Source: a virus (Duplodnaviria > Heunggongvirae > Uroviricota > Caudoviricetes). Taken from it: a stretch of 64,000 nt of DNA. Where the stretch lies: positions 32,001 through 96,000 of the IMG/VR virus record IMGVR_UViG_2617271072_000004. One strand, given 5' to 3'. The notes below the pieces were generated by a model. That model ran no database searches and was not told the origin of the DNA. It saw only the letters and a program-made list of their open reading frames with translations. Below are positions 49,848-60,400 of this stretch, piece by piece (the stretch's first letter is position 1; each line of letters starts with the position of its first letter). Made by a program: the position numbers and the translations under genes.

Positions 49848-50029
49848 CAGTAAAAAATTCCTTGCTCCTTAAAAGGGGAGAGGGTTAATCTACGTATGCT
49901 AAGCATAGATATGGCCTCAGATTAATGTTAAGCGTCTTGCAGGACGCGTAATGTTATCTGGGGCTTTCTTCTATCTGCTTTTCGGGTAATGCCTGAAGCA
50001 GATAGCCTCAAGCACCCGCAACGATTGTA

Positions 50030-50275
50030 TCAATGTCTGGCTTTTTTTCTATAGAAATCACCTGGAAGGGTGAATATCCACATCAGAAGAAATGTTGCAG
50101 CAAACATGATCCCTAATGGCCAGACCGCGCCAAAGAAAATCCATTCTAAGATCTCCTCTGCTTGTTCTTTGCGGTCGATATCGACAAGCATTTTTCGGCT
50201 GATCATGTATACACAGAAGCCAATACAAACATATCCTGCAAAAGCGATCGCTAACTGTAAAAAATCAGATTGCAT
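50030..50275 (-). CDS. hypothetical membrane protein (81 aa)
   Basis: two hydrophobic segments; start placed downstream of the operator-like site. Confidence 0.45.
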   Translation of the reverse strand: MQSDFLQLAIAFAGYVCIGFCVYMISRKMLVDIDRKEQAEEILEWIFFGAVWPLGIMFAATFLLMWIFTLPGDFYRKKARH

Positions 50276-50305
50276 CTCCGACCTCAAACTGAAAACGCCA
50301 GGTGA

Positions 50306-50322
50306 CTCCAGATTAGAGCAAT
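50306..50322 (-). promoter_or_regulatory. C1-operator-like half site
   Basis: ATTGCTCTAAT core (11/17). Confidence 0.4.
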
Positions 50323-50325
50323 CTA

Positions 50326-51172
50326 TCACCCTCTGAATCCTGCCGGTATACCCCATTGTTCGTTATCTTTATTTTTGGCTAAAACCGCATTAAGAGCTTC
50401 GTTTACCGTCATGCAATGCGGCAAATTATCGAAGTTTGATACCCCGCCAATATCAGGAGAACGCTTGTTCTTCAGGTAAGCATATTTCCGCGCTGCCGCC
50501 TCTACTTTCTGCTTGAACTCATGTTTTTGAGCGCGCTTTTTGGATAACCGCAGATTGTCAGCCTTTGCTTTTGCCTCAGCGATCCATGAAGTCAATTTTT
50601 TGAGTCTGCTCGTTCCGGCACCGCCGGAAACTGATCTTTTTGTTTTTTTAACTTGTGACTTCTTATTCTTTATTGCCACGTCATCCTGACAGGGGGAGGG
50701 GGTATCATTTTGACATGGGGGTGTGGATAAAAAATTAAATAAAGCCAATGTCTTAGCGAGAACAGCTTTAACCTTGGTTGCCGCTGAAGAGATCTTTAAT
50801 TTGCTTTCAATCAGCGCATTTTTTGGCTTGTTGTGCGAAGGCCAAAAAGGATGGCGTAAACCGGTACAGGTTAGCGCGACGTTCACGGTGATCGCCGATA
50901 ACAATCTCTACAGACAGAATTCCTTTGTTTACAGCTTCACGGAATGCACGAACGACGGTTGATTGGCTATAACCAGTTTCTGCCGCGATCAGGCGGTGAG
51001 GCTTGTGAATGAAGTATTCACTGGTTGTTGCCGCGAGATTTGCACATTGCGACAGGATATGCCCGGTGCTACGGGATAGACCGGAGTGTGTTACAAAGCA
51101 GGCCAATTCATAGCCAGAAAAAGTAAAATCGCTCATCGTTATACAGCTCAGGAAAGTGACTTTAGCCAGCAT
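50326..51172 (-). CDS. repL: RepL-like lytic replication protein, frame interrupted at an A6 run (plus-strand T6, 50819-50824)
   Basis: HTH-containing ORF (50807-51172) and ORF 50326-50904 join as ...AQQAKNALIESKLK... if one base is removed; possible ATG start at 51136. Confidence 0.65.
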
Positions 51173-51201
51173 TACAATGCTGGTGGTTCTTACTACGTCT
51201 G

Positions 51202-51771
51202 TTAGCGCGTTGCCGCGACAGGTACCAGCACACCAGCATCAAGCAATCGCTTCATCAGCCACTGCTGACCTTTGCCGGTTATACGAGTCGTGAAAGAAAT
51301 CCTGCTTCCATTGCTTGTATCGATCACGGTTTCTTTAAGGGTGAAATACCCACGGGATATGTATTCTTGTTTGGGGACGTTCCTGCGTTCACCGGTTGCG
51401 ATCAGAATTCCGTTATCACGCAACCAGGTGAAGAGATAGTTTTGGCCCAGGCCGAGCACTTTGGCATAGTTGCCGATTAGAACCCCGCTGGCGGTAGCAA
51501 CGCGTTCGGCGAATTCGACTTTAGGTGCATCCATAAGCATTTTTTGCTCCAGCCGTTGCTTTTGCTCTGCCAGGTCGGCAGCCAAACGGAGAGCTTCAGG
51601 GAGACTCTGCGGAATAGCAGGTTGTAATCTTCCGGCTCGATAGTCGATAAATGTCTGGTTTACCTTCAGCCGAAACGCGGGAGAAATCCAGCCTGCGTAC
51701 TCCACAGCGAGCAATTCATGGGCAAAAGTGCCGCCGCCACGGCCTTCGAACGAAACTATGCAATTCTGCAT
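51202..51771 (-). CDS. kilA: KilA-N plus KilAC domain protein, kilA-like (189 aa)
   Basis: N-terminal LAVEYAGWISPAFRLKVNQ; C-terminal IGNYAKVLGLGQNYLFTWLRDNGIL...GYFTLKE antirepressor KilAC pattern. Confidence 0.6.
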   Translation of the reverse strand: MQNCIVSFEGRGGGTFAHELLAVEYAGWISPAFRLKVNQTFIDYRAGRLQPAIPQSLPEALRLAADLAEQKQRLEQKMLMDAPKVEFAERVATASGVLIGNYAKVLGLGQNYLFTWLRDNGILIATGERRNVPKQEYISRGYFTLKETVIDTSNGSRISFTTRITGKGQQWLMKRLLDAGVLVPVAATR

Positions 51772-52072
51772 AGTTTCTTTTTCAAGCTCTTCGATGAGCT
51801 GTTTTGCTGACAGCGTTCTTAGCCATTGAGCTGGCGCTTTATGGGCACCGAGTCCGCTCGCTCTGTGTAGAGCATTAAGGTTGTAACGGCCAGCGCGGTC
51901 GGTCGTAATTTCAACACCACAAATAACAGGCAGAGTGGTTGAAGGATCGACATTTTTGATGAAGGTTTGATATATTCATATCCGCATTGAATGTTTGTTG
52001 CATTTTTTCTCCAAATTTGCATCAACCTTCAATCACCAGCTCGAAATGGTGATTCTTTGCACTTAGAAAACG

Positions 52073-52089
52073 AAATTTATTAGAGCAAA
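52073..52089 (-). promoter_or_regulatory. C1 repressor operator
   Basis: minus-strand TTTGCTCTAATAAATTT (16/17). Confidence 0.7.
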
Positions 52090-52166
52090 TTTTTCTGACT
52101 CGATCCAGATCGGGTTGGTCGATCTGCTCAGAAACCTGCCAGTTTGCTGGCAGGTTTTTTCTTTTG

Positions 52167-53212
52167 TTAACCTATTGCTACTGGTTTTAACAAACCAGCA
52201 TCAAGTAGCTTGCGAGTTAACCACTGCTGGCCTTTACCCGTTAATTGGGGCGTCAGCCGTATCTGGTAGCCATTTTCATCATCCAGCACCACTTCTTTCA
52301 CCGTGAAATACCCGGCGTTAATGTACTGCTGGCGCGGTACGTTTTTTGCGCGCACCAAAAGCCATGAGAATGCCGTTCTGGCGCAACCATGAGAAAAGGG
52401 CGTTTTGCTTAAGTCCAACGACCTTTGCAAAGTTCCCGATCAGGATTCCATTAGCCACTGATACCCGGTCGGCAAAATCGACTTTAGGGGCTGCGGCCAC
52501 CAGCTGTTGTTCCAGCTGCAATTTCTGTTCTGCCAACTCGGCAGCCAGGCGTAGGGCTTCTGGTAATGTTTGGGGGATCGATGGGGTAGGGGAGTTTGCC
52601 TGCTGCAATTCTTCCAGTTTGTCGATCAGCGAACGGCGGACCGCTTTCGATTCGCGCGCGGCGACTCGCAGGGCTTGTTTGTAGGTCATGGTTATGACAA
52701 CCATAGGCGTACCGCCACCTGGCGGCACGGTTGCACTTTTTTGTGTAACCGTCCTCACCTTCTAATTCGTCGAGTATTTTTTCGATGAATTTGTTGTTCC
52801 GAACCTCTGGTTCCCCACATAACTTACGCGCTTCATTGACCATCTTTAACAGTGTCAGGCTGTCGATTGTGTCTCCGGTGGTGGGGATGACATTCACGGC
52901 TGGTGCTGGCGTTGCTGAAGCAACAGGTGCTGGTTTTTTAACATTCAAATTATTACTGGTCATTCTATGTGCCTCCTTTCTCATTTCTGCTGCCACCGTT
53001 GCGTAACGTAGACGTCCTTGTTCAATCAAATAATCCCTGATCTCGGCTATCAGTAGCCTGTTGATCACAGCCTTATCTGTTCGGGTATAAAAACGCCTGG
53101 TTATCATGAAATAGTTGGCAATTGCGCCGGGGATCTCCCGTGTCGGTATACAGGCAGTATGCAGGGCGATCGCTTCGGCTATGTCATTACGGGTGACGAG
53201 AGGTTTTTTCAT
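52167..53212 (-). CDS. ant: antirepressor-like protein with C-terminal KilAC domain (ant-like), frame interrupted at two A6 runs (plus-strand T6 at 52332-52337 and 52737-52742)
   Basis: three ORF fragments join as ...EDGYTKSATVPPGG... and ...MAFGARKNVPRQQYINAGYFTVKE... if one base is removed at each run; start overlaps the icd stop (ATGA). Confidence 0.65.
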
Positions 53213-53430
53213 AAACCCCCCTGAACGTCGGCAGAGAAGGGGAGGCTCCAGTAACTAAGTGAATTGCGCGAGTTAGTTGAAAAACGGGCAGTAAAAATGC
53301 AGGGGCCATCAGGCAATTGAGAGCGTGCTTCGTCTTCAGTTGCTGCGATAACGAAGTGATAGTGGTGTTTTTTACAGGAATAGAAACGCCAGATGAATTC
53401 TGGGCGTGCGCAAGGATTGGCATTAACCAT
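53209..53430 (-). CDS. icd: small protein translationally coupled to ant, icd-like (73 aa)
   Basis: 73-aa ORF with GAGG ribosome-binding site; position between the c4-like region and ant. Confidence 0.5.
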   Translation of the reverse strand: MVNANPCARPEFIWRFYSCKKHHYHFVIAATEDEARSQLPDGPCIFTARFSTNSRNSLSYWSLPFSADVQGGL

Positions 53431-53464
53431 AGTTACGGCCTCACAATCAGGTTTAACAACCTGC

Positions 53465-53570
53465 TACCCGCTGCTAAACAGGTGGCAGGACGTGACGGGG
53501 TTAGCAGACTGGCGATTGTGAAACCAGCAGGCCGAAGCCTCCCCATCACGCCCCACCATAATTTGGGCGT
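53465..53570 (-). ncRNA. candidate c4-like antisense RNA region
   Basis: contains TCACAATC complementary to GATTGTGA at the icd ribosome-binding site (53447-53461) and to an upstream copy (53625-53641); exact ends not determinable. Confidence 0.3.
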
Positions 53571-53744
53571 AACGCGGTTTTACGGACACAAAAATACCGC
53601 AATATCGGATATCTGCGGCTGTCCGCACAATCATTCAGGCTGCTAAACCCGGTCGCAGAATTTGCTACGACGGCGGAACTATAAGCCTGAACGATTAAAA
53701 GGTCAATATGATGCGAAAAGATAGCATTCGTGACTTAAAAATAC

Positions 53745-53761
53745 AAATTTATTAGAGCATT
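53745..53761 (-). promoter_or_regulatory. C1 repressor operator (Op51-like)
   Basis: minus-strand AATGCTCTAATAAATTT (16/17). Confidence 0.65.
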
Positions 53762-53857
53762 ATCTGCTTAATAAATACACAGTTGGATCTAATAACCTCT
53801 TTTTTTTAAAGGCGAAAATATGTACCCTAAATGGGTTATAAGGCAGGTGAGGTTATA

Positions 53858-53989
53858 ATGAGAAAACTATTACTATCGTTATTATTTATGGCTGGGACTG
53901 TTAATGCAGCATCAAGCGTAAAGGAGATTTGTACCGATTATACGAAATACCTTTGGCAAGTTTACGCCTTTGCGATCAATGACTATTAA
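53858..53989 (+). CDS. small secreted peptide (43 aa precursor)
   Basis: ribosome-binding site GGTGAGG; signal peptide MRKLLLSLLFMAGTVNA; AT-rich. Confidence 0.4.
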   Translation: MRKLLLSLLFMAGTVNAASSVKEICTDYTKYLWQVYAFAINDY

Positions 53990-54010
53990 TCCATGCGTAG
54001 GAGTGGATTT

Positions 54011-54329
54011 ATGCTGATTCGTTTGTTTTTAGTGCTTTCCTTTTTAACATTTAAATGTTTTTGCTGATGAAGTTGACTTTTCGAAGGTAGATTGTAATTC
54101 AGTGGAAACAAGAAAAGCTCTTATTGAAGAATATAACGAAATATTATCGTCATATGGAATAACAGTGGTTGATTCTTATAATCAAAAAACTATTCAGAAA
54201 GGAATAAATAAACTGGTCTGTTATGGGGTTTACCAATATTCAGATGGCTCTTCGGAGTATGTTATTTATAAAGCATACCCAAATAGTCTTGGTGAATTAA
54301 TTAGTGAGTTTAAACCGATTAATGAGTGA
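54011..54329 (+). CDS. small secreted protein, frame interrupted at a T5 run (54058-54062)
   Basis: GGAG ribosome-binding site and signal peptide MLIRLFLVLSFLTFKCF join ORF 54102-54329 if one T is removed. Confidence 0.45.
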
Positions 54330-54336
54330 ATGAAAA

Positions 54337-55116
54337 ATGAAATTATTTAATGTAATAACATTTTGTTGTGCTATTTTTGCTGGAAGCGCGATAGCTGATA
54401 ATAAATTGCCAGATTGGCTTTCTACCTCAAAGAAAGATTATGATTTAGTAAGGGCATTCTATTTGTCTGGATTTGCTTCGAAAGCAATGAACAATCAATT
54501 TGGTTATCATTTGCCATCTGAGTTGGTTAATGATTTTAAAGATAATGAATTTGCTGCTCAGGAAAAATGGAACACAATTCCAATTGTGTATGGTGAAATA
54601 AAATCCATAAGAATGGTGAATAATAAACCAATTGTAGAGTTATTTACTCCAGGGGAAAATGCAACGCCACTAAATTATATCAAATTGAAAATATTGGATT
54701 CAAAGCAAGACTCTCTGTTAAAACTAAAAAAAGGGGATGATATATATGCAGTGTGCTCAGGTGCTAATTTTAGCTTAGTGCCAATTCTGAGCAACTGCAC
54801 TCCTGCAACAGACGTCATTGATGCTGCACTCTCTTTTTCTGGTGAATATATGTTCCCTGCTTTTGATTCTTTTTCGCCTACTAAGCAAAACGTCAAATAT
54901 ATATTCACAAATCAAGATCCTGTTCAGATGATGAATTTTATAGGGTACCTATCCTTAGTCGATACAACGAAGGATAAGAAAAAAATGGATATGGTTCGTA
55001 AGTGTACGCCTTGGAAGCCGGAATGTTCACAACAATTCGTTGATGTAATGGAAGGATTTGATAGCATCATGTATAAATATGAGGGAGAATTTAAAAATTA
55101 CATAGAATTAAAATAG
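54337..55116 (+). CDS. secreted/periplasmic protein (259 aa), AT-rich
   Basis: signal peptide MKLFNVITFCCAIFAGSAIA; AT-rich codon usage unlike flanking phage genes. Confidence 0.65.
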   Translation: MKLFNVITFCCAIFAGSAIADNKLPDWLSTSKKDYDLVRAFYLSGFASKAMNNQFGYHLPSELVNDFKDNEFAAQEKWNTIPIVYGEIKSIRMVNNKPIVELFTPGENATPLNYIKLKILDSKQDSLLKLKKGDDIYAVCSGANFSLVPILSNCTPATDVIDAALSFSGEYMFPAFDSFSPTKQNVKYIFTNQDPVQMMNFIGYLSLVDTTKDKKKMDMVRKCTPWKPECSQQFVDVMEGFDSIMYKYEGEFKNYIELK

Positions 55117-55144
55117 TATTTGAAAGGATAGTCAATTTAAGTTT

Positions 55145-55176
55145 AAAAAAAACGCCCATTAAAGGGCGTTTTTATT
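55145..55176 (+). terminator. rho-independent terminator
   Basis: ACGCCC-ATTAAA-GGGCGT followed by T5. Confidence 0.75.
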
Positions 55177-55286
55177 GTTTTACTCAAAACAACCTGATTA
55201 TGTGATAACCATATCATATCCCTCATTCCACCTACACTGATTACCCCCCAGACAACAATATTCCTACTCAATGAACAAATGACTAC

Positions 55287-55893
<607 letters not shown>

Positions 55894-55903
55894 GGGGGCT
55901 GAT

Positions 55904-56515
55904 ATGGGGCTTAATGTTGCTTCAGTAAAGTCTTATGTATCTTCGGCATTAACGACGACATTATTTGGCTCCGGCGTTGGTGAGCGGGAAGTTGGTAAGC
56001 TGACGTCAATCATCATGAACAAAATGCTGTTCGCGCAAGGATGGCAGTTCTCTGTCGAAGTTGATGGTCTGGAGGGGGCAGACTTCTTTGCTAAAGACAT
56101 TACCTACCACGATTACAGCATCGAATATGAAACGATTAAAATCGGCGGAGGGAATATCCTTCAACCAACGGAGCGTTCGCCAGGGCAGATAACAATGATG
56201 GTCAGGGATACCGTTGATGGCCTCGTTTTGGACTGGTTTAAGACGGCAAAAAGTCGGGTGATTAATCCAGACGGTACCGGGAATATACCGTCTAAATATT
56301 TGCTCAATGTGCGTATTTATCGGTTGCTGTCTTCCGGCTTAACCAAACTGGAAAATGAGATGACTGTATTCCCGGTCACTACCGGCGATGTCACCTATGC
56401 GCGGGATCAGGTTACGGAATTTAAGTCATTCCCAATGACCTTCGCATTGCACAGCACGTTTAACCAATCCTCAAGTTCTTTGGCTTCCCTTCTGGGCTTT
56501 AGTTTTTCTCTTTGA
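55904..56515 (+). CDS. putative tail protein (203 aa)
   Basis: operon context. Confidence 0.55.
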   Translation: MGLNVASVKSYVSSALTTTLFGSGVGEREVGKLTSIIMNKMLFAQGWQFSVEVDGLEGADFFAKDITYHDYSIEYETIKIGGGNILQPTERSPGQITMMVRDTVDGLVLDWFKTAKSRVINPDGTGNIPSKYLLNVRIYRLLSSGLTKLENEMTVFPVTTGDVTYARDQVTEFKSFPMTFALHSTFNQSSSSLASLLGFSFSL

Positions 56516-56529
56516 ATTAAGGAGCAAGG

Positions 56530-57468
56530 ATGCTTTTACCCCTTTTCCCGCTACCATCGCGGCCAACTGAATTGATCCAGTTCCGTCAGCCAAATATTGC
56601 TGATGCGATGCGTTTCAACTCGATAACACCGGAGGAACAAGAACAACAGACAACGGCGTATTTAAAAGCCTTGCTGGCTGAACCCGCGAAACATGATCCC
56701 CTGACATGGACGGCGCAGGACCGGATTACCGCGTTATGGTGGATATTTACCGGCTCCCGTGAAACACCGGTCGAGACATTCACTTACACCTGTAAACATT
56801 GCGGTAAAGAGCATTATTACGATTGCGATATGAATGCTCTGGCTGAAGATATCCAGGTCCTGGAAGTGGAACCTTTCATTGACGATATTGAGGTGTCTGT
56901 AGAGGGAGTACCTTATCAATGGCGTATCGTGCCGCTTGATGGTTGGGCAATGGAAATGCTGGAGATGCGCCGTGCAGCATTGCCACCTGAAGACGACGCG
57001 GAATTCAAAGAAGCGATCGTTGATTTGCGTTTTTGGGAATTCGCTTATCAGTGTGAGCTTTATAACGATGTTAGCGGTACTCGTGAAGATCAGGCTGAGC
57101 GTCGTTATGAAACGATTAAACGGATGGCCATTGATACTGAATTTATGAAGCTGGCGGCACACATCCGACTGGCTCATGAAAAGCTCGAACATGGTTTACC
57201 GTGCTACATCGATAAAGGTGAAATGCGTCTTCGTCTCCCGCCGCATAAATGCCCAAATCAGGATAAAAAGGAGTCCACAGAGGGTGCGTATACCCGTCTG
57301 TGGGTGCCTTTCGGGCTACCGACTTCATTCCACAGGTGGGGATTGAAAAGCTATCAGACCTTAGTGTCCAACCTGGTTTTGTATGGGGGTATACCGATTC
57401 AGGACGCTGAAAGGCTTACTGAATCCTATGCGTTTTTTCCTGTTGGAGAAACTGGAAGAAAAACTTAA
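56530..57468 (+). CDS. putative tail protein (312 aa)
   Basis: operon context, upstream of sit. Confidence 0.55.
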   Translation: MLLPLFPLPSRPTELIQFRQPNIADAMRFNSITPEEQEQQTTAYLKALLAEPAKHDPLTWTAQDRITALWWIFTGSRETPVETFTYTCKHCGKEHYYDCDMNALAEDIQVLEVEPFIDDIEVSVEGVPYQWRIVPLDGWAMEMLEMRRAALPPEDDAEFKEAIVDLRFWEFAYQCELYNDVSGTREDQAERRYETIKRMAIDTEFMKLAAHIRLAHEKLEHGLPCYIDKGEMRLRLPPHKCPNQDKKESTEGAYTRLWVPFGLPTSFHRWGLKSYQTLVSNLVLYGGIPIQDAERLTESYAFFPVGETGRKT

Positions 57469-57492
57469 ACCGAAACGGTAGGCGATAAGATC

Positions 57493-60400
57493 ATGGAAAG
57501 AAAAAAACGCCAACATTGACGATGTTATAAGGACAGTTGAAACCGCCAGTGCAAAAGAGCTGGAAGAGCTTGCAGGTATCCGGGAAGCTGTTGAAGATTT
57601 GAAAGGGGGACGCGTTGCAACTGTTGATCCTGTCTCTCGCAGTGTGTCGGCATTAAATCGCACAATCGAAAATTCCCGGCCAGACTTTGTGGCCAATGCG
57701 CCATCAGTGGACCCTATTGTTGAGGCAATGAAACGGCTTAATTTAGGGGACGTTTCTCGTGTAGTTCAGGAAGATGTTGCTCAACAGGAACAGCGGGCCA
57801 AATCAACCACACCAAAGGGTAAAAAACGACGCAGGAAGGCTATACCAGAGGATGTAAAGGCACAACGGACCGAAGCAGCCGAACACGCTCGCGAAATGTT
57901 CGGTCAAAAAGGCGGTGCGCAAAAAAGCCAAAACCAACGCGATGCGCGTGGTCGTTTTTATTGGAAAGTCAGGGAGTAAGGCCGCAGCGGAAGATGCCCG
58001 TGCTGAACGAGCAGAAAAGGCCAGGCGAAAAGAGGATGATGAGCGTCTAAATGCTGAATCAGGTTTATTAAAAAAACTGTCAAAAGTAGCTGAAGGCATA
58101 GGTAACCCTTCAGAGACTCGTGCTGTCGATGCGTTAGGTTATGCCGTTGCAGGTCCATTGTGGGCAGCAGGGAAGGAGCTTGGCGGGATATCAAAAGAAG
58201 TTGGCGGATCGCTTAATGGTGCCAGAAAGTCTATTGCCGATGTGATTCGTGGCAATGACGATAACAGCCGTAGAAAAGGTTTTTTTAGGCGTAAATCGCA
58301 AAATAGTGCCGATGTCGTTCAGGTTAACACCCAAAAACGGACGGTTCAGGAACTTCAGGAGCAGACCAGCGAAATTAAAGAGGGCAATGACAAGATTCTC
58401 AGCGCCCTTGATCAGATAGCCAAAAACACCGGGAAAAAGAAGGGCGGCTTGCTGTCCAAACTATTTAGCCTGTTAGGGAAGGGGGCCGGTGGCGTCGCGT
58501 CGTTGTTAATGGGGCGTGGCATGCTGAAAAAAGCTGGAGCACTCGCTTTTGGCGCTCTGGGGGCAAAGAAACTTGTAGGAATGCTACGCGGTGGTGGCAA
58601 GAAGACTCTCGCTCATGAAGGCGGAGATTTGGCTGCCCGGGCAGCAGGTAAACTTGGATTAAAGGCAGTTGGTAAAGGGGCGTTACGCGCAATTCCCCTA
58701 GTCGGCACAGTGGCTGGAGGTATTTATGATGCGGTAACCGGTTGGAATGATACAGAAGCGCAACGTCGAGCGTTTTGGGCTTAAATCAGGACAAGATCCA
58801 TCATTCCAGCAAAAAGCCGCTTATACGTTAGCCAATGTTCTTGATTTGGGGGGACTGGTATCTGGTATTAGCAGTGCTATTGGTGATGTTCTCAAATCAC
58901 TTGGATTTGAGGATATCGGCAATATGTTGCAATCATTTTCGACGGAAAGTATTGCCCAGGCCATTGATAGCGGGGTTACCAACTTAGAAACATATATTTC
59001 TAACCTTGGCGACACCATTTCTACCAAGTTCGATGATTACACAGCAAAGATTGGTGATGCTGTTTCAGCATGGTTTAGCGATACATCTAATAAGTTGCTT
59101 GAAAAGCTGGATGCCATAAAAGACTTCTTTACTGTCGATAACCTGAAACAGGTTTTCAGTGATGCAATTGATAGTGCAATTGACTTCATTAAGAACCCAG
59201 GGAAACACATTAAAGAGGCGGCTGGTAATATTTGGGATGGGGTTAAAAATTTACCCGGTAAAGCATTAGATGCAGCGGTTGATGCCGTTAAAAATACCCC
59301 TGCGGCAATGATTGTATCAAAAATACCCAATCCGATCGGCGAGGCTAATGCAAAAGAAATCACTCCAGAGTTAAAAGCTCCGGTTAATAGCCACCAGGAG
59401 ACATCTGATTCTAAAACTGAATCCGATGCTAAACAGACTAATATTGCTACCCGCGTGATAAATGCGGCACTGGACACGGCGAAAGATAGCAATAAAACAG
59501 TTAAAGAAACTGCCAATCAGATTATCAATGCAAATGCCGTAGAAACGGGCAATAGCGCGGTGCGGAAAATTGATTCAGCTATTGGACAAAATAGCTCGTC
59601 ATCATCGTCGCGTAATACCACCGGCACTGGGAATGACATTCAGAAAGCTGCTGATACCTACAATAATGGCAACTTAGATGTAAAAGTCGGAAGCTTGGCG
59701 CTGAAGGTAAGGCAAATCTCGATAAGTTAGCTCCGTATTTTGCTGAACTAGAGAATAAATATGGTCTTCCTGAAGGCACTCTTTACGCGATTGCTGCAAC
59801 TGAATCTGGTGGTAATCCATACGCAAAATCCCAAACTGGTGCTCTAGGAATGTTTCAGTTCACGGGCATTGCTCGTGAAGAGACTGGCTTAGCTGAAGGT
59901 GAATCGTTTGATCCTGTGAAATCGGCAGAAGCTGCGGCTCTTCTCATGAGCAAGTATCTGAAGCAAGCCAATGGAGACTTAAACGAGGCCATCACTGCAT
60001 ATAACGCTGGGTTTGGCACTATTAATAAGTGGAAAAAAGGCACCGGTGACTTATCGAAGGAAAACCGTGAGTACGCGATCAAGGTCAATACTCATCGTGC
60101 TCGCTATTTAGGTGGTGAAATCTATACACCTGGGGCAGGAGCACAGGGTGGGGCGCAATATGGAGTGAGGGGACAACTGCCTGATAACGCCGTTATCGAT
60201 CAGTCTACTGGTCTGGCGTTTACCCCTGGTGATAGCCCGTTTGAGAAAGGCGGTCTGGTAGACAAAATCGGCAATGCTGTTGGCGTTAACGATCTGGTCA
60301 ACAAATTCATGAATGGCCGGGGTATGCGTCGGGAAGTCGTTCAGGGAACGCTCGAAGAACGTGCACGAGGGAAGGGGACCGCAACAGCAGCTGGCAATGT

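Follow-up and report, generated by a model that had tools for sequence, protein, structure and literature searches.

The segment 53762-55176 of the window (the whole stretch of 64,000 nucleotides that was analysed) raises the question whether its three genes for apparently exported proteins constitute a new periplasmic module or a system already known from P1-like phages. The segment is set apart by its composition, as the original prediction had pointed out. Its GC fraction is 0.328 as compared to 0.478 in the rest of the window, and when the GC content of the 64 kb was followed in sliding segments of 1415 bp (mean 0.475, sd 0.029), the minimum was recorded at 53801, making this the most AT-rich part and the lowest 1415-bp level of the window. 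The placement of three plus-strand genes between an Op51-like operator and a terminator was likewise borne out by the analysis (Table 1).

Megablast of positions 53650-55300 against phage records revealed 98.7% nucleotide identity over 1651 bases, with 100% coverage, to phage P1 (NC_005856 46603-48251), and the P1 features annotated beneath the matched stretch are simA, simB and simC; the sim operon of P1 itself occupies NC_005856 46786-48070. The 'sim region' record of 1990 (M34382) is 97.8% identical to the window. Among P1-like plasmids, the best match to 53650-55300 displays 99.8% identity, and 136 plasmid records match it with at least 80% query coverage. At the protein level, SimA and SimC agree with their P1 counterparts to the extent given in Table 1, and SimB agrees in 111/111 residues after the deletion of one base (A54053). 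Of 5,426 complete E. coli genomes, 126-129 contain the simB-simC pair, at 132 places in all, of which 131 lie on plasmids. Judged by its nucleotide and protein sequence, the cassette is the long-known simA-simB-simC (superimmunity) operon of a P1-like phage-plasmid. All the sequence-testable defining features of the P1 sim operon are present, except for a probably artefactual break in simB; the genes, their order and orientation, the operator, the terminator and the neighbours are all as in P1. The window differs from P1 by four substitutions in SimA, by one extra A in simB, which is a probable artefact, and by the longer runs that flank the terminator. The combined reading, namely a simABC operon in the layout of P1, a SimC that would exclude superinfecting phage from the periplasm, and a simB frameshift due to sequencing error, is assigned a probability of about 0.97.

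Table 1. Features of the sim cassette and its flanks, in positions of the window
Feature	Position	Strand	Remarks
C4 antisense RNA	53478-53563	-	Rfam RF01695, 69.6 bits
c4 a1b1 target element	53632-53684	-	Rfam RF03163, 55.5 bits
C1 repressor operator Oc4 (former Op51)	53745..53761	.	mapped from the P1 annotation (L001 4596-4612) by alignment
simA	53858..53989	+	43 aa; ATG after GGTGAGG Shine-Dalgarno; 48/52 vs P1 SimA
simB	54011..54329	+	105 aa from second ATG (RefSeq); one-base insertion interrupts frame
extra A	54053..54053	+	A3 run vs A2 in P1 and relatives; frameshifts simB
simC (sim gene proper)	54337..55116	+	259 aa; 258/259 vs P1 SimC; PHROG 14355, E=3.6e-187
intrinsic terminator of sim operon	55148..55173	+	GC-rich hairpin; 10-pair stem, 5 GC pairs, T tail

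The arrangement around the cassette further supports this identity. The window is collinear with P1 across 9.5 kb at 97.5% identity, with repL, kilA, ant1/2, icd and c4 on one side of the cassette and pmgC, tub, pmgB and sit on the other, as in P1; in the window, repL, kilA, ant1/2 and icd lie on the minus strand, and pmgC, tub, pmgB and sit on the plus strand. The C4 antisense RNA and its a1b1 target element, which adjoin the cassette, confirm the immI context. The sequence of the Oc4/Op51 operator, AAATTTATTAGAGCATT, is unchanged between the window and P1, and it marks the point at which the c4-icd-ant operon (minus strand) and the sim operon (plus strand) diverge. In P1, this operator is flanked by the c4 promoters, on one strand, and by PsimA, on the other; PsimA is only a prediction in P1, and it was not recovered in the window by a consensus promoter scan. 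At its other end, the sim operon stops a short way ahead of pmgC and the late promoter LPsit. The original prediction had set the cassette apart from sim on the premise that the sim genes of P1 are co-directional with c4. That premise is wrong, as evident from the P1 annotation, in which simA, simB and simC are divergent from c4-icd-ant and point towards LPsit, pmgC, tub, pmgB and sit. The cassette appeared novel in the first reading because a wrong orientation had been assumed for the P1 genes.

If the cassette were instead a periplasmic or envelope module of a new kind, other than sim and acquired horizontally into the immI neighbourhood, this would account for the low GC content and the sharp compositional boundaries, and also for the absence of a family name, since searches of Pfam, NCBIfam and PADLOC returned no significant named family for SimA, SimB or SimC; the PADLOC-DB models of defence-system proteins gave no match to any of the three at E<=1, and their PHROGs matches are to families of 'unknown function' only. 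The genes are moreover named 'hypothetical protein' in the RefSeq records of P1-like phage-plasmids, a label under which the sim identity is easily missed unless the phage record is consulted. However, the cassette is the P1 sim operon base for base, with homology over the full length of the proteins and in the arrangement found in P1 itself, which refutes its description as a new module and leaves that explanation with next to no credibility. Its low GC content is already in print as well: P1-like phage-plasmids have eight variable regions of low GC, and simABC is among them (PMC9603915). The sim genes belong to the textbook knowledge of P1. They were first described in 1982, their sequence dates from 1990, and both their low GC content and their variability among P1-like phage-plasmids are published; at the level of the cassette the finding is already known and nothing new. 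The functional part of the prediction, that the cassette is exported, low in GC, horizontally mobile and possibly concerned with entry exclusion, fits well with the literature on sim (PMC8546580, PMC9177967, PMC9603915).

The break in simB calls for separate consideration. In P1, simB is annotated with 111 codons, corresponding to a start at ATG 53993 in the window, and SimB matches PHROG 14329 over its full length (E=2.6e-71). The original prediction was right that the frame carries an error and that mending it yields a protein of 105 aa, but it placed the extra base in a T5 run, and the alignments place it at A54053: the site reads TTTAAATG in the window and TTTAATG in P1 and plasmid NC_017653. 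Deletion of A54053 restores the exact SimB of P1, with its signal peptide ending in ...LTFNVFA|DEV, and deletion of a T from the T5 run instead would give ...LTFKCFA. A probe of 80 bases across 54053 matched 141 plasmid records, every one of them at 95-99% identity and short of 99%; each of the 12 plasmid matches listed is 98.8% identical over 79 bases, which corresponds to the sequence lacking the extra A. When positions 49879-59303 were compared with NC_017653 (99.5% identical), 12 one-base insertions were detected, of which 11 lengthen A or T runs, together with one deletion at 57306. The insertions (49882, 50819, 51953, 52342, 52737, 54053, 55145, 55169, 57433, 57501, 57955 and 58773) are private to the window and absent from P1 also, and the genes broken by the indels of this stretch are repL, kilA, ant1 (twice), simB, pmgB and sit. 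The ORF coverage of the window likewise shows long genes broken up in several places, sit for example lying in four pieces over 57.6-60.9 kb.

These observations suggest that the simB frameshift is most likely a sequencing or assembly artefact. Between 51.8 and 58.6 kb, the window and NC_017653 differ by 9 one-base indels and a single substitution, a ratio that fits homopolymer sequencing error and does not fit mutational decay. A true frameshift, in an element that is naturally simB-null or is a defective prophage-plasmid in decay, and that continues to express SimA and SimC, would take the extra A of the window at face value, and such a variant could live with it, as simC has its own start codon and may still be translated, and simB is non-essential (PMC10695390). 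Such an allele is, however, found in none of the 141 matching plasmid relatives, and the extra A is only one among 12 insertions in 9.4 kb that break several genes, with the excess of indels over substitutions being typical of homopolymer error; a real simB-null allele is accordingly regarded as improbable, at roughly one chance in ten. Programmed -1 or +1 ribosomal frameshifting, by which full-length SimB could be made from the sequence as written, is less plausible by far. The site does lie within a T/A-rich stretch, TTTAAATGTTTTTG, but P1 and the 141 matching relatives encode SimB in a single frame without the extra base, and similar indels break unrelated genes in the neighbourhood; we know of no stimulatory frameshift structure in simB. 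With sequencing error as the preferred explanation, the many homopolymer indels mean that frameshifts in this window are not to be taken as biology. Read strictly as written, on the other hand, simB is broken and this copy would yield no exported SimB.

The claim that all three proteins carry cleavable N-terminal signal peptides agrees with the anatomy recognised by a heuristic script, which is not a dedicated predictor. Each protein has an N-terminus bearing K or R, a hydrophobic core averaging about 2.7 on the Kyte-Doolittle scale across 9 aa, and a site of the AXA type, the predicted cleavage sites being VNA|A in SimA, VFA|D in SimB and AIA|D in SimC. In SimC, a K at position 2 is followed by the core VITFCCAIF, and cleavage is predicted by the same script at AIA|DN, after residue 20. 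This site is of the signal-peptidase-I type and lacks a lipobox, and the prediction for the mature protein is accordingly a soluble periplasmic form.

The start of simC is clarified by the window itself. A G to A change at 54333, as compared to P1, makes the stretch 54322-54336 read ATG AGT GAA TGA, and this places a stop codon within the 5-codon extension (MSEWK-) with which P1 is annotated. The start of the 264-aa simC annotated in P1 is consequently unusable in the window, and this supports the 259-aa start at MKLFNV adopted by RefSeq, which bears the signal peptide.

SimC belongs to a small family. An exhaustive HMMER search of 1.84 billion representative proteins returned 15 hits at E<=1e-3, and few of these are full-length relatives (84%, 39% and 29% identity); an indexed homologue search recovered SimC itself, one relative of 83% identity and fragments, and nothing else. 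No significant match to SimC emerged when the PDB was searched by sequence, the best E being 0.65. Residues 62-154 of SimC match the Pfam family PF12869 ('tRNA_anti-like', an OB fold) with 19.1 bits, which is below the cut-off of 23.5 (E=1e-3), and PF12869 is matched by 4 of 9 sequences of the SimC family, at best with E=2e-14. Alignment of the two revealed a common motif, NDFxxNExAAxxK...G-x-I, in the region of about 60-156 of SimC.

Structural modelling of SimC points in the same direction. The AlphaFold2 model was built from an input alignment of 9 sequences, and the best of the five models has a pLDDT of 75.6, with the other four at 38-48. At this moderate confidence, the model comprises two helices, a five-stranded OB barrel (beta1-3, a helix and beta4-5, at about 60-156) and a helical C-terminal domain, so that the layout of SimC would be a signal peptide, a probable OB-fold domain and a helical C-terminal domain. 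The best domain-sized match in the PDB by Foldseek is 3f1z, a 'putative nucleic acid-binding lipoprotein' of Klebsiella, with a target-normalised TM of 0.70-0.73 and an rmsd of 2.6-3.2 A over 113-117 columns, and the remaining PDB matches fall on OB anticodon-binding domains of lysyl-tRNA synthetases. Among viral models (BFVD), Foldseek matched phage proteins that bear the names tRNA_anti-like and 'host cell surface-exposed lipoprotein'. The moderate-confidence model and the alignment together suggest that SimC probably holds a periplasmic OB-fold domain related to PF12869, with which it shares both motif and fold over about 60-156. It differs from the proteins of that family, 3f1z included, in scoring below the Pfam cut-off, in having an extra N-terminal helix and a helical C-terminal domain of about 100 aa with two conserved Cys residues, and in not being a lipoprotein. 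The papers searched contained no reference to an OB fold in SimC. To our knowledge, the PF12869 family has no demonstrated function.

The role of the operon in exclusion is known from P1. Adsorption of phage to Sim+ cells is normal, the Sim block is bypassed by transfection, and the processing of Sim needs the Sec pathway. The Sim phenotype depends on SecA, and in its strong form it was observed with multicopy clones, so that the contribution of a single-copy prophage is uncertain. The sim genes are described as giving P1 superinfection exclusion and are thought to block the injection of DNA into the cytoplasm, according to the passages of two papers that cite Devlin 1982 and Kliem & Dreiseikelmann 1989 (PMC8546580, PMC9177967). 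The title of Maillou & Dreiseikelmann 1990, as cited in PMC2409434, calls simC a superinfection exclusion gene and refers to the purification of the processed protein. In a CRISPRi study, simA, simB and simC were found to be non-essential and dispensable for lytic growth (PMC10695390). Given its near-identity to P1, in which the phenotype is established in the literature, the cassette of the window would be expected to confer exclusion as well.

A mechanism may be proposed from these elements. SimC would be exported by means of a Sec-type signal peptide, with cleavage after about residue 20, and would act in the periplasm, where it would halt a superinfecting P1-type phage after adsorption and before the arrival of its DNA in the cytoplasm. 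Its predicted OB fold may bind a component of DNA entry, and candidates are the tail-tip or tape-measure/transglycosylase complex once it has been ejected, a factor of the envelope, and the DNA itself. SimB would be an exported accessory protein. If SimC does act through this fold, PF12869, a widespread family of OB folds that are exported or lipoproteins and in many cases encoded by phages, would gain its first function, the blocking of phage DNA entry.

Phage-encoded exclusion proteins that block DNA entry are known from other systems, namely Imm and Sp of T4, SieA of P22, Ltp of the Streptococcus phage TP-J34, Llp of T5 and Cor of phi80. These resemble sim in outline, being located in the envelope and stopping a second infection at or just after adsorption; no sequence relationship between them and the Sim proteins was detected in the Pfam, PHROGs, NCBIfam and PADLOC searches. 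SieA and Imm reside in the inner membrane, and Ltp, Llp and Cor belong to the lipoproteins, whereas SimC is predicted to be a soluble protein of the periplasm and to be neither.

The first gene of the operon appears to have a different history. simA is annotated with 52 codons in P1, corresponding to a start at ATG 53831 in the window, and its product matches positions 1-41 only of the 213-position PHROG 3933. The gene is collinear with about the first 36 codons of a gene for a 215-aa exported protein, which is intact in phage Ro157c2YLVW (L004 3209-3856) and in a metagenomic contig (L005 1921-2568). The stretch shared with the gene of Ro157c2YLVW comprises the same start codon, the signal peptide and a few mature residues, and the nucleotide similarity between this phage and the window fades just upstream of the simA stop codon. 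These observations suggest that simA is probably no accessory superimmunity gene but the 5' stump of a displaced gene for the 215-aa exported protein, which remained at a recombination junction. SimA would in that case be a probably non-functional remnant of a different exported protein.

The interval from Oc4/Op51 to LPsit and pmgC holds differing cassettes of exported proteins in different punaviruses. In P7 (L003 3894-4958), it contains upf50.5, which encodes an outer-membrane lipoprotein, and upf50.0, the products of both being signal-peptide proteins. In Ro157c2YLVW (L004 3209-4384), the 215-aa gene is followed by a gene for a 158-aa exported protein of the YfjT family (PF27224). The metagenomic contig (L005 209-3109) carries, in order, a gene for a 107-aa membrane protein, simB, a simC of 83% identity, the 215-aa gene, the 158-aa YfjT-family gene and pmgC, and thus has simB-simC and the 215/158-aa pair side by side. 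The cassettes of P7 and Ro157c2YLVW resemble sim in their position between Oc4/Op51 and LPsit/pmgC, in their plus orientation and in encoding proteins with signal peptides or lipoprotein signals; they differ in that the proteins are unrelated to Sim, except for the 5' end common to simA and the 215-aa gene. This slot therefore looks like a site at which exported proteins are swapped, consistent with the published variable region (PMC9603915).

A wider proposal, that the punavirus slot is dedicated to exported proteins always aimed at the envelope, that simA is a stump, and that SimC excludes phage by way of its PF12869-type OB fold, is doubtful when all of its parts are taken together, with the odds against it. 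The OB-fold assignment and the observation of a simA remnant provide small, testable leads on the mechanism of Sim.

The terminator of the operon shows a further feature. A scan of 53500-55400 for terminators returned the hairpin listed in Table 1 as its sole match, and this hairpin is conserved in P1. In the window (55140-55183), it is preceded by an A8 run and followed by a T5 run, flanks with which it could act as a terminator in either direction. The closest plasmid has one base fewer in each run, a difference that may reflect homopolymer error, and the flanking runs of P1 are likewise shorter than those of the window.
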